Source: a virus (taxonomy: Duplodnaviria; Caudoviricetes). Taken from it: 35,981 nt of DNA. Below are positions 2,304 to 35,981 of this stretch, one piece after another. How positions within the stretch are numbered: position 1 is the first letter of the stretch; every line of letters starts with the position of its first letter. Below the pieces are notes generated by a model. That model saw only the letters and a list, made by a program, of their open reading frames with translations, was not told the origin of the DNA and made no database searches. The position numbers were made by a program, and so were the translations under genes. The stretch covers positions 1 to 35,981 of the IMG/VR virus record IMGVR_UViG_3300027887_000031. The stretch is one strand, 5' to 3'.

Positions 2304-2619
2304 TTATAATTCCTTCAACTATGATTACAATAGTTGAAACGCATAAGGCAAGATAGAACCATTCCAAAATATTTCTTGATGCTGGTATAACCATGATCAT
2401 AGAGAACCACATTGAGTTGCACCAGATACAAACTATCCCATCGTTGAGCGTTTCAAATATTCTTCTAAATGAATTATACAATGTTCTCGTATAAATATAT
2501 TTACGAATATTAGAAAACATCTTGAACGGGCCGTCCTCCCTGGCAAACAAGCTTGATAGTCGCCAAGTCGCCAGGGAGATAATAATCACTTTTAGAATAA
2601 ACTCAAACGTGTCACTCAT
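2290..2619 (-). CDS. DUF1360-like small membrane protein
   Basis: LATWRLSSLFAREDGPF...CIWCNSMW pattern with hydrophobic segments. Confidence 0.75.
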   Translation of the reverse strand: MSDTFEFILKVIIISLATWRLSSLFAREDGPFKMFSNIRKYIYTRTLYNSFRRIFETLNDGIVCIWCNSMWFSMIMVIPASRNILEWFYLALCVSTIVIIVEGIINGEN

Positions 2620-5563: not shown

Positions 5564-5870
5564 ATTTCCCAATCTTCTCCAGATAATCGTAAGCGGCCCA
5601 TCTTGCATAACTTTCAGAGAACCTCATTATTTTAATTCTCGCATCTGGAAAGTCCTCATCATTAATCATAAACTCAGGAACACAATAAGTTATGTCACAA
5701 AAGTACATTCGTATAACTATTGTGAGCCTATCAACCTCAACGCTTTTGAGAACATCTTCTTGACACCCGTATCTTCGGAGTATTGCTTCGGATATCATTA
5801 TCATTCGCTCCGAAAGCGAATCAGCATATTCTTTTACAGTTGGCTTCGTCTTATCAACACTATTAAACAT
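5538..5870 (-). CDS. Hypothetical protein (110 aa)
   Basis: ORF fills the gap and overlaps both neighbours in the operon. Confidence 0.65.
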   Translation of the reverse strand: MFNSVDKTKPTVKEYADSLSERMIMISEAILRRYGCQEDVLKSVEVDRLTIVIRMYFCDITYCVPEFMINDEDFPDARIKIMRFSESYARWAAYDYLEKIGKYVELEERN

Positions 5871-6594
5871 TATTGTTTTTTAATTCTTCTGGCAACCATA
5901 CGCTAATCGCCTTGAAGTCTTCATCCTTGAGTTTCGGAATTTCGTTCCAATCAAGCTTCCCCTTGAGAAGTCCATTCGAGTATCTGATTGGACTTTGCCT
6001 AGTACCGAGAACGCGCATCTTACTTCCATGCTTGTTTACTATCGTGGTTCCCTCAAGTTCTACTTCCCATGCCGATCTATGGTTTTCGTCAAGAGATTTT
6101 ATTACAGAAAGATATTTTTCTCTATCCATAAGACATGCTTGATGAGACATCTGATACGGACTCCCTGGAGCCTCAATGATATCAATTCTACCAAGATAAT
6201 CTACATCTCGCATTCCGCCAGCATAAAGCCTATCCGTCGTGAGATCGATCCTCAAAATGTTTTCATCTCTATTCATGTAGTCATCCAACATATAAATAGC
6301 TTCTTTGTCTGGAGGGCGCACCATCCAATAATCTTCATGCATAAGAATAAACCGTTTTTCAGAATACTCATCTAAGAATTTTATTGCGGCATCAACCCAC
6401 TTCGTTGCTGGATACTCATCAACAGAAACAGAATAGAAGTAAAAATTTCTAGGCAATGCAAACTTTGGCTCATTAAACCCAACGATAATAACGGTATCGT
6501 CGGTTCCCCAATACTTATTAAATAACCAAGCAAAAGGTTGAACGGCCCACAAATGCTTATCGCAAGTAAATACAACAACATCCTGTTTCATCAC
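5863..6594 (-). CDS. Putative GT-A-fold glycosyltransferase-like protein (243 aa)
   Basis: N-terminal strand VVVFTCD, DxD-like FILMHEDYW, later AWEVE motif; family call is tentative. Confidence 0.5.
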   Translation of the reverse strand: MMKQDVVVFTCDKHLWAVQPFAWLFNKYWGTDDTVIIVGFNEPKFALPRNFYFYSVSVDEYPATKWVDAAIKFLDEYSEKRFILMHEDYWMVRPPDKEAIYMLDDYMNRDENILRIDLTTDRLYAGGMRDVDYLGRIDIIEAPGSPYQMSHQACLMDREKYLSVIKSLDENHRSAWEVELEGTTIVNKHGSKMRVLGTRQSPIRYSNGLLKGKLDWNEIPKLKDEDFKAISVWLPEELKNNNV

Positions 6595-7862
6595 TCTAAC
6601 TCCGGCTTTAATCCAGCATCACTAAATCTCTGCAAGGATACAGCTACCCAGGTTGGATCATTCTCCATAGCATAACAAATCCTACCATATTGCTCTGCGG
6701 CTATAATCTGAGTTCCAGATCCAGAGAAAGGATCAAGACATATATCTCCAGCGTCCGTATGATTTTTCATTGGAATGCTGTAAAGCTCAACAGGCTTCTG
6801 CATTGGATGTAAGTATTCGGACAAGTTTATCTTATCGATTGACCATACCGAAAATTGGTTCCTTCCACCATTCCAGATATGCCTCTGGCCTTCAAGATAT
6901 CCATACCAGCAGTTCTCATGCATCCACTGATAATCAGATTGACCCATCGAAGGTCTGTTCTTGGCCCACACAATTTGAGACTGAATATGGATACCAGCAT
7001 TCTTCATAGCATGAAACATAGCAAAAGATTCCTCCATCGCGGCTGTCCATATATAAAACGAAGACCTTGGATCCATTTTCTTTATCCAGATATTCAACAC
7101 ATATCCGAGCCAAACCCGAAGATCGTCACCGGATACGGTATCTCCTTTTATTCCAGCCCATTCTTTTGCAACTGGATTACACTTCGTTTTTGAGAAATCT
7201 ATTCCATACGGAGGATCAGTCACCATGAGAACAGACTTTGTACCGTCTATGAGTTCGTGTACAATAGCTTCGTCATCGCTACTTCCGCAAACAAGTTTAT
7301 GAACTCCACCATTTCTGCTTGTTATGTTCCAAACCTGTCCGTCCTCAACTCCCCACTTGTCCTTAACTTCATTAAGTTCTTCTTCTTCAAGCAGTCGCTT
7401 TTCTTCGCGCTTCTGTTTGTGGTTATCCTCAACTCCTTCTGGAGTAAATTCAAGCCTGTTCCTTTTTGCGACGCGAGATACCAGATCGGATACACGGTCA
7501 TTCTTATTATTGAGCGTTTCAAGAAGTTTCTGTAATCTTCCCTTATCCTCTTTCGCGAAGCTCGTGATAGGATCGAACGTCGCAAGTATTTTGTTTTCTT
7601 CTTCCTTGGTAAGATTGACATAAACAACTGGTATCTCTTTTTCACCATTCGCAATTGCTTCCTCAACTCGCATCTGTCCATCAACAAGATTTCCGGTTGT
7701 TGTATTTATGACTATAGGAGCAACCCAACCAATATCATCGAGAACACCGTCGATCAACTTTCGTTGAAGTTCAGGATGTTCTCGATAATTATTTTCGTTA
7801 TACTTTACTTTCTTTGGATCTAAGTTATCGTACTTAACTATTCTGTTTTGCCAGTTAGACAT
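6591..7862 (-). CDS. ParB-like N-terminal domain fused to an N4-C/N6-A DNA methyltransferase (beta class)
   Basis: ParB-like GWVAPIVIN...LVDGQMR; catalytic TDPPYG precedes SAM-binding LDPFSGSGT; HPMQKP motif. Confidence 0.92.
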   Translation of the reverse strand: MSNWQNRIVKYDNLDPKKVKYNENNYREHPELQRKLIDGVLDDIGWVAPIVINTTTGNLVDGQMRVEEAIANGEKEIPVVYVNLTKEEENKILATFDPITSFAKEDKGRLQKLLETLNNKNDRVSDLVSRVAKRNRLEFTPEGVEDNHKQKREEKRLLEEEELNEVKDKWGVEDGQVWNITSRNGGVHKLVCGSSDDEAIVHELIDGTKSVLMVTDPPYGIDFSKTKCNPVAKEWAGIKGDTVSGDDLRVWLGYVLNIWIKKMDPRSSFYIWTAAMEESFAMFHAMKNAGIHIQSQIVWAKNRPSMGQSDYQWMHENCWYGYLEGQRHIWNGGRNQFSVWSIDKINLSEYLHPMQKPVELYSIPMKNHTDAGDICLDPFSGSGTQIIAAEQYGRICYAMENDPTWVAVSLQRFSDAGLKPELE

Positions 7863-19284: not shown

Positions 19285-20877
19285 TTACCTCTCTAAAAGA
19301 TTGAGTGGCTTTCCCCACCCAGGAACCTCATCAGCCTCTTTCCATCCCTTCGCATATTTCTTATTGCGAAAATCGTCAACGCTCCACTTGCTTTTTGTCA
19401 AGTTCGAATCATGACGTATGCAAACGTTTGGAGCTTCTGACTGATACATTTCAGAACCGTACTTTCCGCCTTTGTGATATCCATAAATAGACTGATTGCA
19501 TCCTGGCTCATAATGACCGTCAAAACCTTTCTGCTCAATCTGCTGTATCTTCTTTGTATAGAAGTCAATCAGGAGTTCTCTGTTAGCGCAAATTCCGCTA
19601 ACTTGCTTTAGGTCATCTGTCCATACAGAGTGTCCATCTGGATATCTTGTCTTCCAAACATTCGTGTTGTAATAAAATATATCGTCTTTTTTAGGAGTGA
19701 AAAGAAAATGTGACGGATGGTAAAGAACGTCTGACTCGCACAAGAATACATACTTTGCATCGCTATTCATAAGTCCTTGCAAAATCTGTCTGTGCATCAT
19801 CTCTGGCCCTCTCTGTCCATCCATCCTTAATCTTGTATCTCCAAAATCTATATCTTTATTAAGAGACACGCTGATAATATTGAGTCCAGATTTCTTCAAT
19901 TGTTCTCTACACGCAGTTTCAATGTCAAGACTATGTGTATTGCACGTATAATATATTATATCCTTTTTCGCTGGAATATAATCTTCCCAATCTGGAGGAC
20001 TGAACTTTTTGATAAGCCATTCAAAAGAATATTTTGCGCCTTCCCATTTATTATCAGCAAAAAGCTCTTTCGATTTTTCTCTATTTCGAATAACAAGATT
20101 GCCTGGGTTTGGATACGGAAATCCAAAGTCTCCACCTTTTGTTCTAAACATGTGAGCGTACCAAGTTTTTCTATTTACAAGAACCCTTCCGCCACTTAGC
20201 CATGTTTTACAGGCGACCTCAACCCCTTGCTGGCCCCACGAGTGAAAATCCTTCTCCGAACTGATGTCCAATTCAAAATACTTTTCTCTCGTTAGCATAA
20301 AGCAAGATCCCTGCAAAGACATTGTTTCCGTAAGATCGCCTATTTGCCTGGATCCGAACTCGTTCCAATATTGGAAATGCATATCTCTGTCGAAACGATA
20401 GGCCGTACTCTGCGGATTTGTTTTCGCTATCCATACAACTTCCATCTCTGTTGGTTCACCGCATTCTTCACAAGGCCCACTTATTCCCTGATACCGACGA
20501 TGGTTGTTTTTGCATAGCCAGTTGAATGCATGAAGATTGCGCATCACCGGAGCCATCGTAATATCCGGTTCCATGCTTTCCATCATTGTTACGTCGAAGC
20601 CAGGAGCAAACGCACAATGAGCGTCAACCTTCATGATATACTTAGTTGACGGATCTGTAATTCTTGCTCCTTGATTTGTAGCAGCTCTCTGACCTATCGA
20701 TTCGCTGTTGTGAATGATAATAACATCTTTATGATCTTTTATGCCAGGATCAGGCCAGTATCCATCAAGAACTGCGATTACCTGTGTGCTTCCTTTTTTA
20801 TTATCTAATATATCTTTGATTGTATTCGTGAGAAATATTTCATTTCTTGCTGGAATGATAATAGATAAATCGTACAT
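19285..20877 (-). CDS. Two-domain GT-A glycosyltransferase; N-terminal domain is ppGalNAc-T (GT27)-like
   Basis: SIIIPARNE, MKVDAHC (DxH), WGQQGVEVACKTWLSGG...AHMFR; second domain has VFLCESDVLY. Confidence 0.88.
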   Translation of the reverse strand: MYDLSIIIPARNEIFLTNTIKDILDNKKGSTQVIAVLDGYWPDPGIKDHKDVIIIHNSESIGQRAATNQGARITDPSTKYIMKVDAHCAFAPGFDVTMMESMEPDITMAPVMRNLHAFNWLCKNNHRRYQGISGPCEECGEPTEMEVVWIAKTNPQSTAYRFDRDMHFQYWNEFGSRQIGDLTETMSLQGSCFMLTREKYFELDISSEKDFHSWGQQGVEVACKTWLSGGRVLVNRKTWYAHMFRTKGGDFGFPYPNPGNLVIRNREKSKELFADNKWEGAKYSFEWLIKKFSPPDWEDYIPAKKDIIYYTCNTHSLDIETACREQLKKSGLNIISVSLNKDIDFGDTRLRMDGQRGPEMMHRQILQGLMNSDAKYVFLCESDVLYHPSHFLFTPKKDDIFYYNTNVWKTRYPDGHSVWTDDLKQVSGICANRELLIDFYTKKIQQIEQKGFDGHYEPGCNQSIYGYHKGGKYGSEMYQSEAPNVCIRHDSNLTKSKWSVDDFRNKKYAKGWKEADEVPGWGKPLNLLER

Positions 20878-21446
20878 TATTTCCTCATAATTACGAGACG
20901 ATCATCGAAGTGACGAGCGATTGGAAATGTTATTAATTCAGCATTGTATTGCTTTAGGTATTTCGCAACCTTGTCGCTAACAACATCTTCAACAATATAT
21001 ATTGCACCGTCTTTTAGAAATGGCATAATATCAAGACACGTATTTACTTGAGACTTAAGCGTGTGAAGACCATCGTCAATCACAATATCAACATCGTCTC
21101 CAACGTCAGACATAAGGCGAAACACATCTTCGGTATGCGTTTGATCGCACTCGAATGTTTTTATTCTATCTGCCTCAAACAATATATCTTTATTAATATC
21201 AGCACCGTATATCTGAGCGTTCGGGAAGAAGTCGCGCCACATATACAGGCTCGCTCCGATTGTGTATGTTTTAGGTCGCTCCATTACTGCTGGATATCCA
21301 ACTCCGATCTCAAGAAATTTCTTGACATCATTTCGCATATCCTTAAATAGCTCATAGTAATATGGAGTAAATGGATGTTTTATCTCGTAACACTTATCGG
21401 ATCCATACTTGTATGCAAGATGACATAGCTCAGTCCATAAGTTCAT
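20877..21446 (-). CDS. Class I SAM-dependent methyltransferase, MycE/TylE-like sugar O-methyltransferase type
   Basis: YGSDK...H...YY, LEIGVG, IYGADI, DQ, DIVIDDGLH, YIVED. Start set at ATG 21446 (ATGA overlap with the upstream stop). Confidence 0.85.
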   Translation of the reverse strand: MNLWTELCHLAYKYGSDKCYEIKHPFTPYYYELFKDMRNDVKKFLEIGVGYPAVMERPKTYTIGASLYMWRDFFPNAQIYGADINKDILFEADRIKTFECDQTHTEDVFRLMSDVGDDVDIVIDDGLHTLKSQVNTCLDIMPFLKDGAIYIVEDVVSDKVAKYLKQYNAELITFPIARHFDDRLVIMRK

Positions 21447-22117
21447 TGTTTCGCCCAAAACCAAGATCGAGATGGATCGCGTATTTCTTCACCCGTCTTT
21501 TCCTGCGATCCAAGAATAAACCAGGGCTTGATTGCATAAGCTTTTGTATACCCATCCACAACATACTTCACATGAATTCTGGCTTGCTGTCGATATGTTG
21601 TATAATCGTGTCCAGCAATAATTCCGCCTTTCCTCACCTTGAAAGACCACTCATGAATATCATTCGTGCAATTCTGGAAGTCGTGATTTCCGTCGATATA
21701 AACGAAGTCGAGTGAATTGTCTCCGAACATCTTGATTGCGTTCAAACTCGTGTTTCTGATAATTGTGCTGTTTGGATATCTTGAAAGTATTTTCTTTGCT
21801 TTTTCGTAATACCCTTCATGAAGTCCTTGATCAATCGTAAGACCGTCACCGTCTATGTGAGGTTCACCGTGTTCAAAGTAAGTGCCAGCATACCAGGGAT
21901 CGATGCTGTATATCTTTGCATTCGGATTTTCGTTGCAAAGAACAGCCGAGTATTCACCACTCTTAACACCTATTTCAGCGCCTGTTGAAAACTTCAATTC
22001 ATTGAAAAGAGCGGCGAGATTATTTCGCCCGAAGTTTGGAATCACTACGGGCATTTTTCCTTCGATCTCTTTATGTATACCGAATTTATTTGTGATGTAT
22101 TCAATCGTGTCAATCAT
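21443..22117 (-). CDS. Class I SAM-dependent methyltransferase (Methyltransf_24-like)
   Basis: GAEIGVKSG, IDPW, LDFVYIDGNH, GGIIAGHDY. Confidence 0.9.
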   Translation of the reverse strand: MIDTIEYITNKFGIHKEIEGKMPVVIPNFGRNNLAALFNELKFSTGAEIGVKSGEYSAVLCNENPNAKIYSIDPWYAGTYFEHGEPHIDGDGLTIDQGLHEGYYEKAKKILSRYPNSTIIRNTSLNAIKMFGDNSLDFVYIDGNHDFQNCTNDIHEWSFKVRKGGIIAGHDYTTYRQQARIHVKYVVDGYTKAYAIKPWFILGSQEKTGEEIRDPSRSWFWAKQ

Positions 22118-22995
22118 TTCTTAGAAGCCTTTATTTCTTTCCAGTTTTCGGGCCAATTCGGGAGAGGCCAGAACTTATCAATAAGCCACTCGATATCATG
22201 TATTCTTTCTTCCCATCTGTTGTTCCACCAGAAGTCGAACGAATAAGCATTTCCTCTAAGTCTCTCCGATGATGATAAGAAGTACATTCTTCCGTATTGC
22301 TTTCCTTTATGGAGATGCGCATAGTATGTATTCTTGTTTACCATGACTCTGCCATGCCAGGGGCCAAGTTGTGTCTTAAATCCAATCTCCTGCGGTTCGC
22401 CCATGAATGTCTCGTACCCTATGTTGTCCATTCCTTTAATCCTGTCAACAAAGTGTTCTTTCCACATGAACCAACAACTTCCCTGAAAAGTCATATCTTC
22501 ATATACGGTTTTGTCTTTCAGGAATTCACGGCGCTCGCTCCACGTTCTTCCATGCAAACCAGGATCATGCTCATGCCCTGGAGTAAATGGATAGAAATAA
22601 TACATCGAATCTACTGGAGACTTATCATTCAGCTTCCAGTTCTCTGCATCAAGACTATATCGCCTTGGAATGATAATCTCGTTATCTTCGCAGTCACGCT
22701 GTAGTATCTCGTCAAAACCTGGGCCAAACAAACAATGTGCGTCTGTCTTCATGAGATACTTGCCAGTGGCTATGGATGCCGCTTCGTTAATTGAAGTTCG
22801 CATTCCTTTGGAAACATCATGAACAATTGTTCTAATTCTTTTGTCATCCGGTAAAACTGGATGCTCTGCCCTGTCATAACCATCGAGAACTGGAATCACT
22901 TCAATATCGCCAGTAGCCTTCTCTAAGATGTCCTCTACTGTTTTCTTTAGAAACAGTTCGTTTCTCGACGGTATCAGTATTGATACTCTACTCAT
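22114..22995 (-). CDS. GT-A glycosyltransferase, ppGalNAc-T-like paralog of 19285..20877
   Basis: SILIPSRNE, VLDGY, MKTDAHC, QGSCWFM, EIGFKT...GRVMVNKNTYYAH. Confidence 0.88.
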   Translation of the reverse strand: MSRVSILIPSRNELFLKKTVEDILEKATGDIEVIPVLDGYDRAEHPVLPDDKRIRTIVHDVSKGMRTSINEAASIATGKYLMKTDAHCLFGPGFDEILQRDCEDNEIIIPRRYSLDAENWKLNDKSPVDSMYYFYPFTPGHEHDPGLHGRTWSERREFLKDKTVYEDMTFQGSCWFMWKEHFVDRIKGMDNIGYETFMGEPQEIGFKTQLGPWHGRVMVNKNTYYAHLHKGKQYGRMYFLSSSERLRGNAYSFDFWWNNRWEERIHDIEWLIDKFWPLPNWPENWKEIKASKK

Positions 22996-23013
22996 TCTAT
23001 TCCTCTTTATAAC

Positions 23014-23625
23014 TTATGGTTTTGCCCAAAATACGGTGTACTCTGGCTCTTTATCGACTTTCACAAGATAGTCGCAAATAAAAAACTCGTTGATCTGATG
23101 AGCCTTTGTGTATACATCAACTGCCTCAACAACTCCGGCTCTACTGAAACGGTAATAATCATGTAGTGCAATAATACCGTTTGACTTCACTTTTCTTCCC
23201 AACGAGATAAGATCCTCCATTACGTAATCGAACTCATGGTTCCCATCAATATAAATAAAGTCAAGGCTTTTATCCTTGAATTCGCCAACGGCTTCCATAC
23301 TTGTCTTTCTAAGTATGGTTACTCCGTATGGATCTAATCTTTCATGAGCAAGTTTGAAACAGCGTTCATGCTCATCGGTAGAGTTTTTCCAATGGTATTT
23401 CATATACGGATCGACGCAAGTCAACTTGATCCCGTATATGCTCTGGCATAGCTGTAGTGCGTACAATCCCTGAGCGGTTCCGACTTCGACTCCGTTAAAG
23501 AGCCTAATCTCATTTAGATACTCCGCTAGATTTCTTCTTGTAAATCCTTTGATACGAACCGGAATTGATTGAGAACTTTTCGGATTGAACCTTTCGTGTA
23601 AAACCAAAGGTAAATTATCAGTCAT
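23014..23625 (-). CDS. Class I SAM-dependent methyltransferase (Methyltransf_24-like), paralog of 21443..22117
   Basis: GVEVGTAQG, VDPY, LDFIYIDGNH, GIIALHDY, and a shared C-terminal FWAK. Confidence 0.9.
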   Translation of the reverse strand: MTDNLPLVLHERFNPKSSQSIPVRIKGFTRRNLAEYLNEIRLFNGVEVGTAQGLYALQLCQSIYGIKLTCVDPYMKYHWKNSTDEHERCFKLAHERLDPYGVTILRKTSMEAVGEFKDKSLDFIYIDGNHEFDYVMEDLISLGRKVKSNGIIALHDYYRFSRAGVVEAVDVYTKAHQINEFFICDYLVKVDKEPEYTVFWAKP

Positions 23626-28049: not shown

Positions 28050-28399
28050 TCTTTTCTCTTTGCCGACTATGCCGGAGATGCTTTGCGAGCCAAAAACAGA
28101 GCATTTCTTTGTCCTATTTATAGGACGTTTGTAAAGTAACTCCCCAGTAATACGTATTACTAATCAAACTTTTTCTATATTTAAATATGCGTCACAACGA
28201 TTCCCTTTCATCACTTCACCTTCGCATTACCGGCTATGCGCCTGATTTCATCTCTACTTCCATATCATTTCCTATCTACATACGCCCTACTTCCTATCCA
28301 CATGCTATATACATTACAATTTTTCACTCCGATTAGGACGATGATTTTCAAAAATTGAGCTACGTTTCGGAGAGGATCTTTTACATGAGCGCCAAAAAT

Positions 28400-28669
28400 T
28401 TAGGTAAACCTAACCTTTTTTTTAGCCCAGCCTAAAACTCAATTTAGGCTCACCTAAAACTCAATTTAGGCTCACCTAAATTTGAATTTAGGCTCACCTA
28501 AAAACTAAGTTAGCCTATACTAACTTAATATATTAATATACACTAACTCATTGAGATAGCCTGCATTGAGATGTTTTGTTAGTGCAGACTCCTATGCCCA
28601 TTTAGGCTATCCTAACTTACTATTTAGCCCAGCCTAAGTATTAAGCCAATTAAGATTAGGCCGACCTAA
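28400..28669. repeat. Array of 14-bp palindromes TTAG(G/C)-N4-(C/A)CTAA, mostly at a 22-bp period
   Basis: Copies start at 28400, 28422, 28444, 28466, 28488, 28510, (28533 degenerate), 28602, 28624 and 28656. Confidence 0.92.
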
Positions 28670-28676
28670 AACTCAT

Positions 28677-28713: not shown

Positions 28714-28742
28714 TTGACTTAAGACATGACTTAAGCGATAAT
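28714..28742 (+). promoter_or_regulatory. Sigma70-type promoter of the plus-strand (putative early) region
   Basis: TTGACT-N17-GATAAT, overlapped by a TGACTTAAG direct repeat. Confidence 0.7.
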
Positions 28743-28793
28743 ATATTCACGCCAGCGGTTTGGCTGGCCCAACCAATTTTAGGGAGATTCGAA

Positions 28794-29453
28794 ATGACAG
28801 CCGTTTTGATCAGCAAAGACGTTGTTGGTGAAAATCATGGCAACTCAGCCATGACAGCCGTTTTCAACCATGTGACCGCGCTTAATCTGGATCCTGAAAC
28901 CGAGTTGAATTTGTGGGATTCTGGTTGGACTCTGCTGGCGAAGTCGATTTGCCATGATGCGAAAGGTGGCTGGAATGGCACGTTTAGAACCAGACTCCCC
29001 AAAGCAATTAGGGGTGACTCGCAGGATGCGCCAGCCAGCCAGCCAGCCAGCCAGGATGCGCCTAAGACAGCGCCAGCGAAGAAATCATCGGTCGCGGTCG
29101 AGTTGTCGCTGTATGATGGTACGGTGCGCTTAAGCGCGGAAAAATGTTTCGCAATCATCGCGGTCGACGGATCCGTCTTCATGTCACCTGGGGCCAGCCC
29201 GCTGTTACGGAAGATCGACTCGGCTTTGACCGACATTGTAAAATTCGTCCGCGAAAACGTCCGTCGAGACAATGAATTCGACTTAGGCGGAATTAAGATT
29301 TGTGCGCAGGATTCGGAAACCGCTAAGAAAGTCATCCGCCAGCGCCTGTTCGATGCTGGGGAATACGAGACACTGGCGAAGATCGGCAAACTTGAACCCA
29401 CCGCCAGCCCGTCTTTGGTGGATGCCTGGATCAGCAAATATCATCCACAGTAA
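28794..29453 (+). CDS. Hypothetical protein (219 aa), probable paralog of 33114..33986
   Basis: GGGAG SD; shares NGxFRTRL and other motifs with the 33114 protein. Confidence 0.85.
   Translation: MTAVLISKDVVGENHGNSAMTAVFNHVTALNLDPETELNLWDSGWTLLAKSICHDAKGGWNGTFRTRLPKAIRGDSQDAPASQPASQDAPKTAPAKKSSVAVELSLYDGTVRLSAEKCFAIIAVDGSVFMSPGASPLLRKIDSALTDIVKFVRENVRRDNEFDLGGIKICAQDSETAKKVIRQRLFDAGEYETLAKIGKLEPTASPSLVDAWISKYHPQ
29030..29053 (+). repeat. (GCCA)6 microsatellite inside the CDS
   Basis: Six perfect units flanked by a CAGGATGCGCC direct repeat. Confidence 0.9.
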
Positions 29454-29471
29454 GCCAGCCAGCACCAAACT

Positions 29472-29497
29472 TAACCCCCATCTTAAGATGGGGGTTA
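29472..29497 (+). terminator. Perfect 26-bp palindrome after the gene; terminator or processing hairpin
   Basis: TAACCCCCATCTTAAGATGGGGGTTA followed by a weak T tract. Confidence 0.55.
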
Positions 29498-29571
29498 TTC
29501 GCTTTAAGTAGAACGGATAATGTACGAGACAGCCAGCCAGCCAGGTGAGTGATCACTTAGCCAGCCAGCCA

Positions 29572-30031
29572 GCATGGTCGAGCAGATAGCGTCCTACACT
29601 TGATGGTGTAATCGCCAACAGATAACATGCGTCTCGGAACAATAGCGTATGCGGGAATGCGAGTAGGCGCGTATGGTGCAGTATCCACATCGAGATGCGG
29701 GGCGGCACGATGACGGTGCTGGCGAGTAGGTGATCGTCGGGAGACGATATGGGCCAGCATAAACTTGTTCAGACATCTGATCTAACGTCATCTGATTGAG
29801 ATAACGACTCACGCCGGACATCTTAGGCACAACCACCATCAAGATACGACGATAGCGCTACACGCTGGAATGCAGAGGCAATATGGGATCTTCGTTTAGC
29901 CAGCTACTAAGTCCCGCTGGCGAGTGATAGGCGTTACCTATCAGCGTCTCCGATACAGGCCAGCACGAGCGACTGCGGATGGATGAGCGAGCGTGGGTAC
30001 AAACCACAGCACTCACCAGATCCGTTCCATG
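29572..30031 (+). ncRNA. Candidate large structured non-coding RNA (family unassigned, strand assumed)
   Basis: No credible ORF with an SD; long-range pairing 29599-29608/29834-29843; two GCTGGCGAGT...GGCCAGCA stem modules. Confidence 0.4.
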
Positions 30032-30128
30032 CCGGAGATGGGTTGTGTGATTGTCTTACTGGATATCAGGATCTTGTCTTGATATCCGGTGCGGTTTACA
30101 CAACCATATTCTTAGACCAGGGAGATAC

Positions 30129-30536
30129 ATGATGCGTAAAGTAGTGTTCGTCTTAGTTGTGGCTGTTCTGCTCATTGCGCGGCCCGTCAATGCTGGCTTA
30201 CCGACGATATGTGTAGCCAACGAAGATGATTGGTGCGAGCAGATGCAGGGTGGTGATGAGTATTGGGAAACTGCGGATGAGAGTTTCCTGAATGCGATTG
30301 CGCTCAACGGGTACGAAGATGAGCGTGGTGGTCGCTGGATGATGAGCGACTCCGATGGGGATGGGGATGCGGATCTGATCGAGAGTGATGAAGTGTGTAC
30401 GAACTCGTACATGGCGATGGGTGATCAAACCAAGATGCTCATCGGTCAGGCGATCAACGTCCACATGAGCGGGAAATGGTTCTGCGGGTACTTCGAAAGA
30501 CAGGCAGTTTATATGCCGATGATGATCAACGACTAA
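30129..30536 (+). CDS. Exported protein with signal peptide, Dx[DN]xDG motif and C-terminal VYMPMM motif
   Basis: GGGAG SD; MMRKVVFVLVVAVLLIARPVNA signal peptide; DSDGDGDAD; ends QAVYMPMMIND. Confidence 0.8.
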   Translation: MMRKVVFVLVVAVLLIARPVNAGLPTICVANEDDWCEQMQGGDEYWETADESFLNAIALNGYEDERGGRWMMSDSDGDGDADLIESDEVCTNSYMAMGDQTKMLIGQAINVHMSGKWFCGYFERQAVYMPMMIND

Positions 30537-30626
30537 GTGGTCTGCATCCTGATCAGGTAGAGATATCTGATCAGGCTATAGCTCACTTGGGCTATAACCA
30601 ACCAACCAGATAAAGGGAGATGTACA

Positions 30627-31103
30627 ATGGAATTCAACAGTAACTCAGTATGGATCGGCGAGTTTCTCGGCAACAACGATGTTTGGCATTGGATCGTCTT
30701 TGACAAAGAACGGGATGATCTCATCAACCGCAACACTGTTGACAACAATCTCGGTTATGATGGTCAGCCGATCAGGGTGAGCGATGCGATGAAACTCACC
30801 GGACTATCCGCCGAGCAGATCATCGAGAAATGCTATCCTGGTAAAACTCCAGGCGATATGCCAGGGCATTATTACTTACGGATGTACGCGGGAGAGGGAA
30901 CGGGCATCTTCCATCGTGGCAAAGTGGCTCACGAATACAGGATGATGCACTCGCCAGCGGGTGTCGAGATCGTGGTCACAACTCATGGGGCATTCCCCAT
31001 TTACCCATACGAGACGATGTTCGACTCTAGCGCAGATGCATGGGACTTCCTGAGCAAGCATCTGGACGATCTTAACGCGCTGGCGTTGCCAGCCGCGAGT
31101 TAG
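30627..31103 (+). CDS. Hypothetical protein (158 aa)
   Basis: AAGGGAG SD with the conserved leader. Confidence 0.85.
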   Translation: MEFNSNSVWIGEFLGNNDVWHWIVFDKERDDLINRNTVDNNLGYDGQPIRVSDAMKLTGLSAEQIIEKCYPGKTPGDMPGHYYLRMYAGEGTGIFHRGKVAHEYRMMHSPAGVEIVVTTHGAFPIYPYETMFDSSADAWDFLSKHLDDLNALALPAAS

Positions 31104-31183
31104 GGAATAGCTTGCTGATCACCAGGGCAACTTGGTGGTCGGCGGGGAGTTCATAACTCTAAACCAACCAACAGGAGACAGCA

Positions 31184-31540
31184 ATGAACAAGAAAACCTA
31201 TGTAGTAAGATGCAGGGAACCAATTGCCATCGAGATGGCTCGATATGAGGGCAATACGATCATCAGCAAGCGCGATGAACTCATCGATCCAAGGATCCCG
31301 ATCCCCGCGTACAACACTTGGGAGTTCAAGATTAGCGGATCCCCGAATGCGAGACGCTGGATGAGCTTTGGCGTGTTCATGAACCAAGCCAAGGTGAGAT
31401 TGGTGGACACCAAAACGGGCGAGATATACATCGAGAAAGGCGAATGGGTTGACTCCGAGACAGGCAAATTATACGCCAGAAACTCGGAAGTGAGCGAGGA
31501 CAAAGCGTTATCATTCCCGCTTAAGAACAGCTTCCGGTAA
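31184..31540 (+). CDS. Hypothetical protein (118 aa)
   Basis: AGGAG SD with the conserved leader. Confidence 0.85.
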   Translation: MNKKTYVVRCREPIAIEMARYEGNTIISKRDELIDPRIPIPAYNTWEFKISGSPNARRWMSFGVFMNQAKVRLVDTKTGEIYIEKGEWVDSETGKLYARNSEVSEDKALSFPLKNSFR

Positions 31541-31679
31541 TTCAAAATCGAGATGCAGACTCAGCCACAATCTGCATCTCCCATAACTCACATGCGCTAC
31601 TCAACCAGGGCGGATAGGGTAGCGCATGAGCGTTATGGCAATCTTGCCATATCAACCAACCAAGATAAGGAGATATACA

Positions 31680-31991
31680 ATGTACGAAATCTTTTGCGCG
31701 AGAATGTACCTATCTTTGAAATCTGCATGGATCCATGCTTTCGGAGACAACGATGGAACGATTGGTACTCTCGATAGAAAAGTGGGCGACCAGATCCGCA
31801 GAGTTGGCGACAAATTCGAGATATGCGACTGCGAAGAACGTGTCAACATCGAGTTATATGCGGATGGAAACTCGTTCAATGCTCGGCACGATACAACCGA
31901 GACATTCGTCAATCCGAAAGTTCTGATGGGGATCGTTGAGCGGGCGCTGGATCTCATCGGTGATAACCAGCGCGAGATGTTTGACCTATAG
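31680..31991 (+). CDS. Hypothetical protein (103 aa)
   Basis: Start reassigned to MYEIF after TAAGGAG. Confidence 0.8.
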   Translation: MYEIFCARMYLSLKSAWIHAFGDNDGTIGTLDRKVGDQIRRVGDKFEICDCEERVNIELYADGNSFNARHDTTETFVNPKVLMGIVERALDLIGDNQREMFDL

Positions 31992-32089
31992 TTGCTGATC
32001 GCTTGCTGGACATCAGCCTTCGAGTTGGTGTCCGGCGGGGAGTTAGCAACTCGGCTAATTCTTAACCCAACCACTTAAGGAGTAATACA

Positions 32090-32323
32090 ATGCGCAACAA
32101 TAGCCCTATCTCGGAAGCGTACAAATCAGAACGAAGATATAATTCTATGCTTTCACGCATGGAGTTCGTTATCTTCATCCTGGCTGTATTGATAATCTCA
32201 TACATTATCATGCTCGGCATCAATCCACTCACCATCATCGGGAATGAGTTGGAACGGATAGCGCCGATGCCTTGGGAGTACGCGAACATCGCTCGATGGA
32301 TCCTGGCTCTGTGCGGTAACTAG
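32090..32323 (+). CDS. Small membrane protein (77 aa)
   Basis: TAAGGAG SD; hydrophobic FVIFILAVLIISYIIMLGI. Confidence 0.75.
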   Translation: MRNNSPISEAYKSERRYNSMLSRMEFVIFILAVLIISYIIMLGINPLTIIGNELERIAPMPWEYANIARWILALCGN

Positions 32324-32409
32324 ATACACCAAAACTCATGCCCTGTACTCGATGTGGTATAGGGCGAGCGTTGTGGTATATCCCACAAAATACAATAAAG
32401 GAGATCAGA

Positions 32410-32838
32410 ATGGATAAGAAAGTGTACACGCTGGACATCGGCATGAGTTACAAAGAAAGTGACTTTATGCCCAGGATGATGAGCAACAGTGAACTCTCGG
32501 ATGCGATCAGGGATCTCGTCTGCGTCGGCATTGACTTGCATACGCACGTCAACTTCTATCTTGCTCGCGGCATGATCCATGACTGCGGAGTTGTCATATC
32601 GTTCTTTAACGAGACTAACTGCAATTGCGGATGCGAGCTTGATTTATCCGAGTATGATCCCATCATCGTAAAGACGTACTACGGAAGGCCAGAGTACATC
32701 GCAACGCTTGAACGCGAGTTCCTGTGCAATAACGTAAACCGTCTCGCCGAGATGCTGGATATCGATATCGCCTATATGGAAGTTCAGGGCTATGAGTTTC
32801 ACGGCATCAAGTTTGGCCTGAATTACTCGAAACAGTAA
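32410..32838 (+). CDS. Hypothetical protein (142 aa)
   Basis: Start reassigned to MDKKVY after AAAGGAG. Confidence 0.8.
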   Translation: MDKKVYTLDIGMSYKESDFMPRMMSNSELSDAIRDLVCVGIDLHTHVNFYLARGMIHDCGVVISFFNETNCNCGCELDLSEYDPIIVKTYYGRPEYIATLEREFLCNNVNRLAEMLDIDIAYMEVQGYEFHGIKFGLNYSKQ

Positions 32839-32846
32839 TTCACAAC

Positions 32847-32882
32847 TCCCGCCTCACTAGAGTAAAATTTAGTGAGGCGGGA
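32847..32882 (+). terminator. Strong hairpin after the gene; possible terminator (no U tract)
   Basis: TCCCGCCTCACTA...TAGTGAGGCGGGA 13-bp stem. Confidence 0.5.
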
Positions 32883-32927
32883 TCACCTTACTGCAAAAAC
32901 CAAGATCCTCAGTTTACCAACTCTGTA

Positions 32928-32956
32928 TTGACAAAATGACCATAATGTAGTACACT
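32928..32956 (+). promoter_or_regulatory. Sigma70-type promoter
   Basis: TTGACA-N17-TACACT. Confidence 0.8.
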
Positions 32957-32988
32957 TGTTCTTCAATTGAATATTGTGTCGATCTTAG

Positions 32989-33049
32989 ATAGGGATGCTC
33001 AACCTTTCGTCTCCCTGGTTGGTTGAAGTTTTCCGTTGAGCATCCCTAT
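32989..33049 (+). ncRNA. Hairpin RNA whose loop is antisense to the shared CCAACCA/SD leader motif; candidate regulatory RNA
   Basis: Perfect 15-bp stem (32989-33003/33035-33049); 31-nt loop contains TTTCGTCTCCCTGGTTGGTTGA. Confidence 0.6.
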
Positions 33050-33113
33050 GTGAGATCGATAGAATCTCACTACCAACTATTCTTGGGTGGCGACCAACGC
33101 CAGGAGATTTGAA

Positions 33114-33986
33114 ATGTCTGAGAAAATGGAAAAACGTGTAGAGATCGAACTCGATCAGGTATGCGGTGAGAAACGCGGCCTGGAAGCGTGTGTCGCTGTG
33201 CGAGATCACGTCCTGGGTGTCTTGAAGCTGTCGGACAAAGATGCGTTAACTCGCGTCTATTACATCAAGTCCGGCTTGGACACGGGCCAGTGGAACGCTC
33301 CGGCGAGCATGACGGTGGAAGGAAAGACCATCAACGGTGGCTTCCGCACCCGTCTCGCATCCGCGCTCAAAGGCCACACGGCTGATGAAGTCAAGGCCGC
33401 TCGTGGTATCGCGCCAGCATCCGGTGAGACGACGATGAGCAAGACGACTGTTCGCCCGATGCGCGGTGTGAAAGTCGGCATCCGCTTGATCATGGACGAG
33501 AATGAGGGCCAGATCGTGTTCCAGGGCGAGCATGTGGACGCTCACTGGACAAGCAAGCAGGGACTCGTCTTCGATGATCTCCAGACGCTGAAAACGTTCT
33601 CCAACGCCTTCTTGCAGTTCGCTGGCTTTCCCCGCGCATTCGTGCTTGGCGCGCCAGAGTATGACGAAGATGGCAATCCGGTTGTGAGCGGCTGGAAGTT
33701 CGGCGGGATCGCTTCGACCAAAGATGAATACACGGATGCGTTGAAAGACATTCTGGCCCAGGCACTCGCGGCCCAGAATTGGGAAGTCTTGGGCCAGGGC
33801 AAAGGTCTGATGGATGGCTCGATCAAGGCCGAGAAAACTGGAGCGAGCATCAAGGATGCGTTCGTGGATCGCTTCTTCCCAATGCCAGAACCCGCTCCCG
33901 CTCCTGTCATCAGCCAGCCCACCGAGACGGTGGATGTCGAGATGATCAAGGAAGCCGAAGCCGCTGGTCGCATCGTTCAGCAGTAA
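33114..33986 (+). CDS. Hypothetical protein (290 aa), probable paralog of 28794..29453
   Basis: Start reassigned to MSEKME after AGGAG. Confidence 0.88.
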   Translation: MSEKMEKRVEIELDQVCGEKRGLEACVAVRDHVLGVLKLSDKDALTRVYYIKSGLDTGQWNAPASMTVEGKTINGGFRTRLASALKGHTADEVKAARGIAPASGETTMSKTTVRPMRGVKVGIRLIMDENEGQIVFQGEHVDAHWTSKQGLVFDDLQTLKTFSNAFLQFAGFPRAFVLGAPEYDEDGNPVVSGWKFGGIASTKDEYTDALKDILAQALAAQNWEVLGQGKGLMDGSIKAEKTGASIKDAFVDRFFPMPEPAPAPVISQPTETVDVEMIKEAEAAGRIVQQ

Positions 33987-34106
33987 GATAACAAGCGCGT
34001 AAATGGTTAGGGCGAGCCGAGATGCTCGCCTTAATCCTAATGCCCATTAGCTTCCGAGTTAGTGGGCATTATGATTTGACTCTAACCAACCAAAAAGGAG
34101 ACGAAA

Positions 34107-34553
34107 ATGTACTACCAGTATGCTTTGTGCTACGAGTACGGCCCGAATGTAGGCGTGAGCAACTTCCACGTTGGTCGCGTCTTTGATGGCCCTGAACTCA
34201 CCCATGTCTGCAAGCAACTCGAAAAACACGGATTTGAAAGCAACGAATTCCTCATGTTCTTCGAGTCCAACGATGAAGAAAACGTTCAGATCAATCTGGA
34301 CAGCGAGTATTGGGTTGGGGATAAGGCGCTCGACCTGCTTAAGAAATTAGGAATGAGCGGTCTTGACTTCGAAACCTATACGCGGATCCACTCAACCATC
34401 GAAGTTATGAGCGCAGTCAGCCCAGGCATTTATCCTGAGTACAACCAGAAAATTGCGCTTAAGATACTCAGCCTGTTTGGTGGAAGATACGACAACTTGA
34501 GGAAGCTCGGACATCTCGCGTTTATCGCGTGGCTCGACAGGGCCAAACTCTAA
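34107..34553 (+). CDS. Hypothetical protein (148 aa)
   Basis: AAGGAG SD with the conserved leader. Confidence 0.85.
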   Translation: MYYQYALCYEYGPNVGVSNFHVGRVFDGPELTHVCKQLEKHGFESNEFLMFFESNDEENVQINLDSEYWVGDKALDLLKKLGMSGLDFETYTRIHSTIEVMSAVSPGIYPEYNQKIALKILSLFGGRYDNLRKLGHLAFIAWLDRAKL

Positions 34554-34645
34554 TTACCTTATGCTGGCTACCGAGTATCACCGGATATTCGGTAGCTGAG
34601 ATAAGGCAATTTTGCTTTATCCTACCAACCAAATAGGAGAGTGAA

Positions 34646-35080
34646 ATGGACGAGAAACAACGGAAAGTGCTGGTCGATGCTTTGCATAAAGCGTCCGAAG
34701 CGTTCAAGGATCTTGACGAAGCCGACACGCATGAGATCAGGGCGGCTTTGTGGATGATTGGATCCGCCAGCCAGATTCTCAAGGGCCAGATCACGGACGC
34801 TCATCGGTTCGCTGGCAGAGCGGTAGGTGAACTCAAACTGGCTATGTACAGGGAAGCGGGATTTGACGCGATCCGCAATCTCAAGCATCTCGAAAAAGGA
34901 ACTCTGGTTGTCATCGAGTACAAATATAACGAGTACGAATGCGTTGTCGAGACAGCCGACAATTGGGGAACACCAGAGAAACCGGACTGGTACATCGAGT
35001 GTCGCGACAGAGACGGAGGCAACTTCCGAAGCTACAAACAATGCTACGATGGTGGCTCGGTTCGGTTGCTCGTCGAATAA
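34646..35080 (+). CDS. Hypothetical protein (144 aa)
   Basis: AGGAG SD with the conserved leader. Confidence 0.85.
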   Translation: MDEKQRKVLVDALHKASEAFKDLDEADTHEIRAALWMIGSASQILKGQITDAHRFAGRAVGELKLAMYREAGFDAIRNLKHLEKGTLVVIEYKYNEYECVVETADNWGTPEKPDWYIECRDRDGGNFRSYKQCYDGGSVRLLVE

Positions 35081-35161
35081 TCTTACGTATCCTGTTCGGC
35101 AAGTTTCTTGCTGGACAGGCTAGATGAGATTATTCATCTACCAACCAAGACAAGGAGGCTT

Positions 35162-35374
35162 ATGGAATATCCTGTTTGTAAGCATGGCAACACGCTCGTC
35201 AATCCAAGCGGCTATCTTTGCTGTGATGCATGTTATCAAGCATTCTGCGAAGAAAGCAACAGGCGTTGGATTGAGTTGCAAAAAGAGATCAGACTCGCAT
35301 ACGCTGGCATCAAGAAATCGTATGCGAAGTATGTCTCGGTGTGTGGTGATCCGGTTCAGAAAGACTATCCATAG
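35162..35374 (+). CDS. Small Cys/His-rich protein (70 aa), possible zinc finger
   Basis: AAGGAGG SD; CKHG...CCDAC. Confidence 0.75.
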   Translation: MEYPVCKHGNTLVNPSGYLCCDACYQAFCEESNRRWIELQKEIRLAYAGIKKSYAKYVSVCGDPVQKDYP

Positions 35375-35381
35375 GAGCGAA

Positions 35382-35807
35382 ATGGTAAACAATAGAGTTT
35401 GGCCCAGAGTTGTATTCTTGGTTCTCTTGATCATCGTGCTGTTTCTCATCATGGCACAGACTCATCGAGCGGGAGGCCAGGACGAAAGCGGATCCGCGAT
35501 CTTCATTCCGGTAGCCATGAGCGGTGGGAAGTGCTACTCCGATGGTCTGCATGTGCTTTGCGTGGACTATGGGAAAATGAAAGATGAAGTGGTCTGCGGA
35601 AAGAGCGTGATCACCGTCTTGAATTCAACCACGAGCGGCTACATCACCAAAGCCGCAACGCTCACCGAAGTCGGTGGTACGCAGGTTCTTACCAAGGTAT
35701 CCGTGATCGAAATCTCACCAGCGAACGTGTGCGAGATCATCGATGGAGATTATCAGTATTTCATCTATCGATTATCCACGAAGACACGGATAACTCGATA
35801 CCAATAA
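35382..35807 (+). CDS. Exported or membrane-anchored protein (141 aa)
   Basis: Start reassigned to MVNNRVW after AGGAG; hydrophobic signal segment followed by AIFIPVAM. Confidence 0.75.
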   Translation: MVNNRVWPRVVFLVLLIIVLFLIMAQTHRAGGQDESGSAIFIPVAMSGGKCYSDGLHVLCVDYGKMKDEVVCGKSVITVLNSTTSGYITKAATLTEVGGTQVLTKVSVIEISPANVCEIIDGDYQYFIYRLSTKTRITRYQ

Positions 35808-35813
35808 TCAGAT

Positions 35814-35841
35814 GCGAGCGTGACCGCATGGTCACGCTCGC
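35814..35841 (+). other. Intergenic 12-bp-stem hairpin (terminator or leader element)
   Basis: GCGAGCGTGACC-gcat-GGTCACGCTCGC; more hairpins follow to about 35900. Confidence 0.6.
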
Positions 35842-35921
35842 TCTCGCATGAATATGCAAAGTTGATCATATTCGTGTGAGAATATTCTCACAAATCAACT
35901 ATAATGGATAAGGAGCATAAA

Positions 35922-35981
35922 ATGAATTTGATCGCCAAGATAATACAGGACGTGAGCAATAACTCGATCAGCGCCAAAACA
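35922..35981 (+). CDS. 5' fragment of a gene running off the window
   Basis: TAAGGAG SD then MNLIAKIIQDVSNNSISAKT. Confidence 0.6.
   Translation, partial: MNLIAKIIQDVSNNSISAKT

Follow-up and report, generated by a model that had tools for sequence, protein, structure and literature searches.

Why would a phage carry, in the loop of a hairpin upstream of one early gene, the reverse complement of the ribosome-binding leader that many of its early genes share? The hairpin lies in a virus record of 35,981 nt, which was analysed over its whole length (hereafter the window) and was present in DNA runs from wetland and soil. This record probably covers only part of a larger genome, since its closest relative with flanking DNA (G001, terminase identity 72%) measures 77.6 kb and is rated 68% complete. 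Among the 15 matches listed, the terminases of cultured phages were at most about 27% identical and pointed to no host. A terminase identity above 70% was found in just 2 of 72 terminase loci, and the comparative evidence on the early region comes from one well-covered relative, G001.

The minus strand up to 28016 encodes a terminase, a methyltransferase, a glycosyltransferase and further large genes. The plus strand from 28794 carries a row of small genes without family matches, which we take to be early from their position and layout. The late region holds multiple glycosyltransferase and methyltransferase genes (2612-5608, 6591-7862 and 19285-23625), which suggests modification of the DNA or the capsid. 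An array of 22-nt palindromic repeats (28398-28675) separates the divergent late and early arms and is a candidate origin or packaging site. Gene 33114, which follows the hairpin, and the first early gene (28794-29453) are paralogs, and each is the first gene behind an early promoter-like site. The 290-aa product of gene 33114 found no relatives as a single query; a profile search with the family recovered 18 representatives at E up to 0.001. The family model contained two confidently modelled domains without a fold match (pTM 0.39 for 33114), and gene 34107 likewise had no family or fold match. Searches for loci of the 33114 family returned only G001, the record itself and a contig of 2.1 kb that has about 70 nt upstream.

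The hairpin and the leader shared by early genes

The arms of the upper stem (32989-33003 and 33035-33049) are exact reverse complements, so the perfect 15-bp stem with a 31-nt loop described in the earlier note is indeed there (Table 1). The full stem (32973-33065) comprises 31 bp and is 87% complementary. The fold of 32960-33130 had a z-score of -4.85, and 0 of 200 shuffles were as stable. At E up to 5, no Rfam model matched the element. An enclosure as strong as that of the loop was seen for 0 of 3000 random 16-mers from viral loci, with thresholds derived from this hairpin. The promoter TTGACA-17-TACACT that had been claimed upstream was found at 32928-32956 and matches 10 of 12 consensus positions, in a sigma-70 consensus scan whose count of promoter-like sites in the record was not above that in shuffles. 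The loop begins 48 nt behind this site. Transcription would start near 32963-32966, and given the promoter match the hairpin would therefore open a 5' UTR of approximately 150 nt for gene 33114. In a simple scan, no terminator-like site turned up from the hairpin to gene 33114, so a free RNA would need processing. Upstream of the promoter-like site, a further hairpin (32847-32882) is a possible terminator lacking a U-tail.

Table 1. Features of the early region discussed in the text (positions in the window).
Feature	Position	Strand	Remarks
First early gene, 219 aa, paralog of 33114	28794..29453	+	Behind TTGACT-17-GATAAT (28714-28742)
Hairpin between gene 32410 and promoter, 15 bp	32847..32882	+	No U-tail
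Putative sigma-70-like promoter, TTGACA-17-TACACT	32928..32956	+	10/12 consensus match
Long hairpin, 31 bp, perfect 15-bp upper stem	32973..33065	+	From pairing and folding; in a series before early genes
Apical loop, 31 nt	33004..33034	+	Antisense part 33005-33026; opening cost 4.9 kcal/mol
Own leader of gene 33114	33088..33106	+	5-bp stem 33088-33092/33098-33102 around ACCAA, then SD GGAG 33103-33106; poorly accessible
Gene 33114, 290-aa early protein of an unnamed phage family, paralog of 28794-29453	33114..33986	+	No Pfam, PHROG or fold match
Predicted target, gene 34107 leader	34078..34106	+	Strongest, 24 bp; net -23 to -24 kcal/mol
Predicted target, gene 30627 leader	30599..30622	+	Net about -20 kcal/mol
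Predicted target, gene 31184 leader	31162..31179	+	Net about -18 kcal/mol
Predicted target, gene 28794 leader (first early gene, paralog of 33114)	28770..28794	+	Net about -17 kcal/mol
Predicted target, gene 31680 leader	31652..31674	+	Net -14 to -16 kcal/mol
Predicted target, gene 30129 leader	30109..30126	+	Net about -15 kcal/mol
Predicted weaker target, gene 34646 leader	34626..34646	+	Net -10 to -13 kcal/mol
Predicted weaker target, gene 35162 leader	35142..35159	+	Net -11 to -13 kcal/mol

The reverse complement of loop bases 33005-33026 reads TCAACCAACCAGGGAGACGAAA, as had been noted, which makes this part of the loop antisense to the CA-box, the Shine-Dalgarno sequence (SD) and the spacer of the early leaders. 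The leader motif CCAACCA stands 3-7 nt before GGAG in 8 of the 13 plus-strand starts, and no conserved early-leader motif was seen before the 24 late starts listed. The sequence AACCAACCA occurs six times against 0.26 expected, with five copies on the plus strand (in four leaders) and one on the minus strand, in the loop. In addition, the 5' UUUCG of the loop fits YGAAA before the start codon of 5 of the 13 leaders. The leaders quoted in the earlier note as matching the loop were all present, and none is matched exactly over its whole length: the longest exact matches are 10-11 nt and fall on different parts of the loop for different leaders, so the loop reads as a consensus. An unrelated phage (L201, 4981-5030) matches 33082-33102, in the leader of gene 33114, in all 21 bases, the GGGTGGCGACC part of which occurs twice there; both L200 and L201, which came from a search with the leader pattern, were set aside as unrelated phages rather than relatives.

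Hairpins precede other early genes as well. Twelve intergenic stretches of the window were folded, of which 10 had z-scores of -3.75 or lower and the others -2.8 and -2.4. The apical loops of 10 sister hairpins measured 3-6 nt, compared with 31 nt here; the arms of the hairpin at 31581 enclose 18 nt, and the loop-size script left this loop out of the 3-6 nt set. That 18-nt loop (31601-31618, before gene 31680) contains UCAACCAGGG, has a raw duplex energy of -20.7 with the antisense loop and could pair with it loop-to-loop. A CUUA(Y)G / G(A)URAG motif was found in three hairpins of the window and in two of three hairpins of G001. The series may consist of RNase III-like sites.

Predicted pairing and a proposed mechanism

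The mean duplex energy of the loop was -22.7 kcal/mol with the 13 early leaders and -13.1 with 24 late starts, which were taken from the open reading frame list and some of which may be misplaced (P 4.5e-5). None of 1000 base shuffles and none of 200 dinucleotide shuffles (z -5.1) came as low as the early-leader mean. Among 153 CTCC-anchored windows of the plus strand, the loop ranked first (-22.5; mean -10.6, sd 1.9, next -17.0). Raw duplex energy was not selective alone, as GCCA repeats and two coding sites reached -27 to -30. With the opening costs of both RNAs included (RNAup-like script), a net energy of -10 kcal/mol or better was obtained for 8 of 13 early leaders and for 0 of 24 late ones (best -8.9). 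A scan of 28760-35981 placed ribosome-binding sites at all of the top six of 70 sites, and eight of the top 10 were leaders. The six best were, in order, the leaders of genes 34107, 30627, 31184, 28794, 31680 and 30129. All four SD bases were paired in 12 of 13 early leaders. The fit of the loop to the leaders far exceeds what chance would give, and it favours early leaders over late ones. The check proposed in the earlier note, RNAup-type pairing against 5' UTRs with shuffled controls, came out in favour of the early leaders, with a raw energy that beat all shuffles. Its central suggestion, that one RNA could act in trans on the SDs of about eight early genes, holds for the predicted pairing.

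Based on these predictions, we propose that the hairpin gives rise to a trans-acting, multi-target antisense RNA that would bind early ribosome-binding sites and damp their translation, and we put the probability of this reading at roughly 55%. The hairpin would be the 5' leader of early gene 33114, transcribed from the putative promoter at 32928. Either an RNase III-type cut in the stem would free the loop, or the intact 5' UTR would act. Pairing may start at the CA-box and zip over GGAG while the variable spacer bulges out, and about eight early genes would then have their ribosome-binding sites covered by the loop and be translated less. Five of the six best targets, including that of gene 28794, lie upstream of the promoter-like site, which suggests a hand-over between two early units: the second unit (33114 onward) would turn down the first, including the paralog 28794, and would also limit gene 34107 in its own operon, with gene 33114 escaping. 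The complementarity of the loop is real and the mechanism plausible, and the case is weakened by non-conservation at the orthologous site of the relative.

Alternative explanations and the relative G001

An unlikely alternative, yet the one that survives best, is that the loop holds an inverted leftover of a leader, captured in an RNase III-type hairpin during cassette shuffling and without a regulatory role. Such a leftover is possible because leaders are recombination joints in this phage population. In contigs from the same habitat, early cassettes were absent or replaced, with the joint in or near the common leader: positions 34621 and 35138 were joined with a skip of 516 nt in three of four runs (11 letters fit both sides), a skip from 32323 to 32837 was seen in contigs of one run, and foreign sequence was joined at 31640-31683 in contigs of all four runs. 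The orthologous locus of G001 also favours a leftover. G001 carries both the 33114 and the 28794 paralogs, and its 33114 ortholog (29% identical) has a hairpin of this kind and a comparable leader in front of it, but with a loop of 12 nt that is not antisense. Relatives that keep the leaders and lack the antisense loop were what the earlier note had named as counting against its idea, and this is the situation at the orthologous locus. Furthermore, in other viruses 11 of 21 matches to the exact 16-mer of the loop (overlapping loci counted twice) are real leaders, followed by an ATG after 5-7 nt. A compressed leader copy is therefore a natural object, which keeps the leftover explanation alive; the argument that a leader with a 1-nt spacer could not be real was dropped on the same count.

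Several features of the insert speak against a leftover. It occupies precisely the apical loop and stays open, it stops at the start-codon position and lacks an ATG, and no single leader is matched throughout. No strand-changing joint was listed in the contigs of the four runs. Lastly, a similar seed occurs in non-coding DNA of G001, as detailed below. On the minus strand the loop has no ATG at the 4-7 nt spacing of real leaders, so it is not the leader of a gene; a minus-strand gene behind an inverted leader was also considered and dropped, as just a 5-codon TTG frame is present there. An invertible DNA segment was likewise rejected, since contigs in three of four runs spanned the hairpin without differences and without a strand-changing joint; this check covered four runs from two samples, one of them possibly the source of the record, and contigs drop rare variants.

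An unrelated high-GC phage (L216; 7.7-kb record) also has this 16-mer in a hairpin loop (918-1000), on an intergenic stem of 22 bp that lies upstream of its terminase genes; no targets were visible in that record. It was rejected as an independent case since it missed the preset opening threshold, and it lies within chance, as 10 of 3000 random sites passed the relaxed control and L216 was one among 59 non-leader matches. No clear counterpart of this element was seen in 79 terminase relatives of L216.

On the early strand of G001, the best anti-leader window (1 of 166) has a two-part seed, CTCC-N5-GTTGGTTG, which occurs once against 0.01 expected per 20 kb. Of the CTCCT sites on this strand that are neither coding nor in leaders, three of four lie within 470 nt behind a perfect TTGACA-17-TATAAT. 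Seven of the top eight early-region sites for the seed were ribosome-binding sites, with net energies of only -9 to -12 and with the caveat that any CUCCU would favour such sites; a second segment favours three leaders missed by the first. The seed fits the leaders of the window no worse than those of G001 (z -5.3 and -5.8), so there is no phage-specific compensation. Its top target is the orthologous gene itself, and the escape of that gene is therefore not conserved. The anti-leader segments did not fold better than shuffles, and nine other terminase relatives gave one match to the seed pattern, not above a control pattern. As support for the antisense reading, the G001 segments are suggestive only.

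The G001 segments, weaker than the antisense loop, belong to a non-coding cluster at a distance from the orthologous hairpin (44200-44860 on the minus strand, corresponding to L204 1700-2363) behind a perfect TTGACA-17-TATAAT. The cluster contains two tRNA-like pieces in the order T-arm, closed acceptor and D-arm, which are YrlA-like (one at Rfam E 0.26) and flanked by anti-SD segments, with a Ro60/TROVE gene about 4.5 kb downstream and an RNA ligase upstream. Y RNAs can have pyrimidine-rich loops, according to the part of the literature available to us (PMC4201824), and given the YrlA-like pieces near a Ro60 gene, the pyrimidine loops of G001 may be Y-RNA features. A Ro60-Y RNA particle guided to ribosome-binding sites in G001 is a speculative possibility.

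Distinctly improbable is a second alternative, in which the RCCA repeat is a protein-binding site, either a DNA operator or a target of an RNA-binding repressor, and the inverted copy is one more site that takes part in no RNA-RNA pairing. Six GCCAGCCAGCC runs at 29030-29570 (29030-29052 and 29532-29570; 0.01 expected), inside and after the first early gene, and similarly placed runs in G001 (L123, 7375-8175) would agree with such a site, as would the ACCAA enclosed by a small stem that is conserved ahead of gene 33114 and its ortholog. The paper on the SAS repeats of mycobacteriophages, in the part available, leaves RNA or protein binding open (PMC3203893). However, an operator needs no complement of the SD or of the spacer between SD and start, the complement would be unreadable for an RNA-binding protein, and the 33114/28794 family showed no recognisable fold for binding DNA or RNA. 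GCCAGCCAGCC is also the wobble equivalent of the ACCA leader repeat and pairs with the loop.

We also strongly doubt that the loop acts solely in cis or on its near neighbour, through a pseudoknot on its own leader or through a duplex with the gene 34107 leader within one message. The raw duplex with its own leader reaches -22.7, and the best partner, gene 34107, is the next gene on what would be the same transcript. Opening the own leader costs 9-12 kcal/mol, however, which leaves a net energy of only -6 to -8 kcal/mol. Cis repression of gene 33114 is thus unlikely because its leader is sequestered, and the fold-back on its own gene suggested in the earlier note finds no backing in these energies. 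Moreover, five of the six best targets lie upstream of the promoter-like site and would be reachable only in trans. Chance complementarity of a U/G-rich loop, which would pair broadly via wobble, is hardly credible, as composition-keeping shuffles never reached the observed value and the AACCAACCA count far exceeds expectation (6 vs 0.26).

Proposed role and comparison with known systems

If the trans-acting reading is true, one loop that addresses a gene class via a leader tag common to its members would represent a novel form of temporal control. We tentatively extend this reading to a possible design in which a processing hairpin was turned into the precursor of a guide loop. The CA-box leader would be an address tag that puts recombined-in early cassettes under one RNA switch, with the carrier gene escaping. 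The same design would also account for the SAS repeats of mycobacteriophages and the single inverted copy among them, and class-wide antisense shut-off of early translation would then be a general phage strategy, the RNA counterpart of T4 RegB. In the part of a review available to us, phage antisense RNAs act on single phage genes or host genes (PMC12197685); the same review tabulates 38 sRNAs without function, which may bear on novelty. In a literature search judged by titles and the starts of abstracts, with most subscription papers outside its range, no paper described a phage RNA directed against the early leaders of its own genome as a class.

The following comparisons draw on the available portions of the cited papers. 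The C4 RNA of phages P1 and P7 is cut from a longer transcript, and its loops pair over a ribosome-binding site and an upstream specificity part (PMC5320573). Similarly, the duplexes predicted here cover the CA-box and the SD in two-part pairing. C4 is a 77-nt immunity RNA with three stem-loops that is processed by RNase P, whereas the window has a single hairpin with one loop, about eight predicted targets and no Rfam match. GcvB has a G/U-rich seed that, by prediction, masks C/A-rich elements lying shortly before the SD of numerous mRNAs (PMC3879156), and the seed here is likewise G/U-rich, single-stranded and complementary to C/A-rich elements of many leaders. GcvB is a host sRNA with its own gene; the element here would be a phage 5' UTR that covers the SD too and is aimed at the phage's own genes, and unlike GcvB-like sRNAs it has no terminator of its own between the hairpin and gene 33114 in the simple scan. 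T4 RegB inactivates early messages class-wide at GGAG ribosome-binding sites (PMC3014915), but it is a protein endoribonuclease, and the agent here would be RNA pairing. C4, GcvB and RegB are thus similar in working or effect, and the element belongs to none of the three.

The hairpin series resembles the RNase III sites between T7 early genes, such as R1.1 (PMC6121014), in that the early genes are separated by stems of at least about 20 bp that contain internal loops; cleavage here would be RNase III-like. Gene gain and loss at repeated intergenic elements is shared with the PeSL elements (PMC4122927; PMC2839356). Each PeSL copy is a composite of promoter and terminator (PMC4122927), whereas most cassettes here have no promoter-like site in the sigma-70 scan. 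An antisense loop is not described for R1.1 or PeSL in the available parts of these sources (PMC6121014, PMC4122927).

Of the systems compared, the SAS repeats of cluster K mycobacteriophages come nearest to this layout. SAS and ESAS combine a conserved, asymmetric ribosome-binding motif of many non-structural genes, in one orientation, with upstream inverted repeats (cluster K, PMC3203893; cluster EF Microbacterium phages, PMC7302621). The ribosome-binding motif here occurs at 8 of 13 early starts, all on the plus strand, and before none of the 24 late starts. Four cluster K1 phages have a single inverted SAS copy without a gene start (PMC3203893), and the window has a lone opposite copy as well, the minus-strand AACCAACCA in the loop, with no ATG at leader spacing. 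The two systems differ in sequence, with a 13-bp consensus of GGGATAGGAGCCC or GGGAAAGGACCCC there and CCAACCA-N3-7-GGAG here. They also differ in the upstream repeats: those of SAS are shared 17-bp inverted repeats with little hairpin support (PMC3203893), and those here vary in sequence and form stable folds, with z-scores of -3.75 or below in 10 of 12 stretches. As far as the available text of that paper goes, the inverted SAS is not placed in a hairpin loop and no antisense action is proposed (PMC3203893). The function of SAS was given as unknown, with RNA and protein binding both left open (PMC3203893), and was still called unclear in 2020 (PMC7302621); the accessible text of PMC4351075 adds nothing on this point. 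The loop reading would make the function of the SAS repeats, open since 2011, directly testable in cultured cluster K phages.
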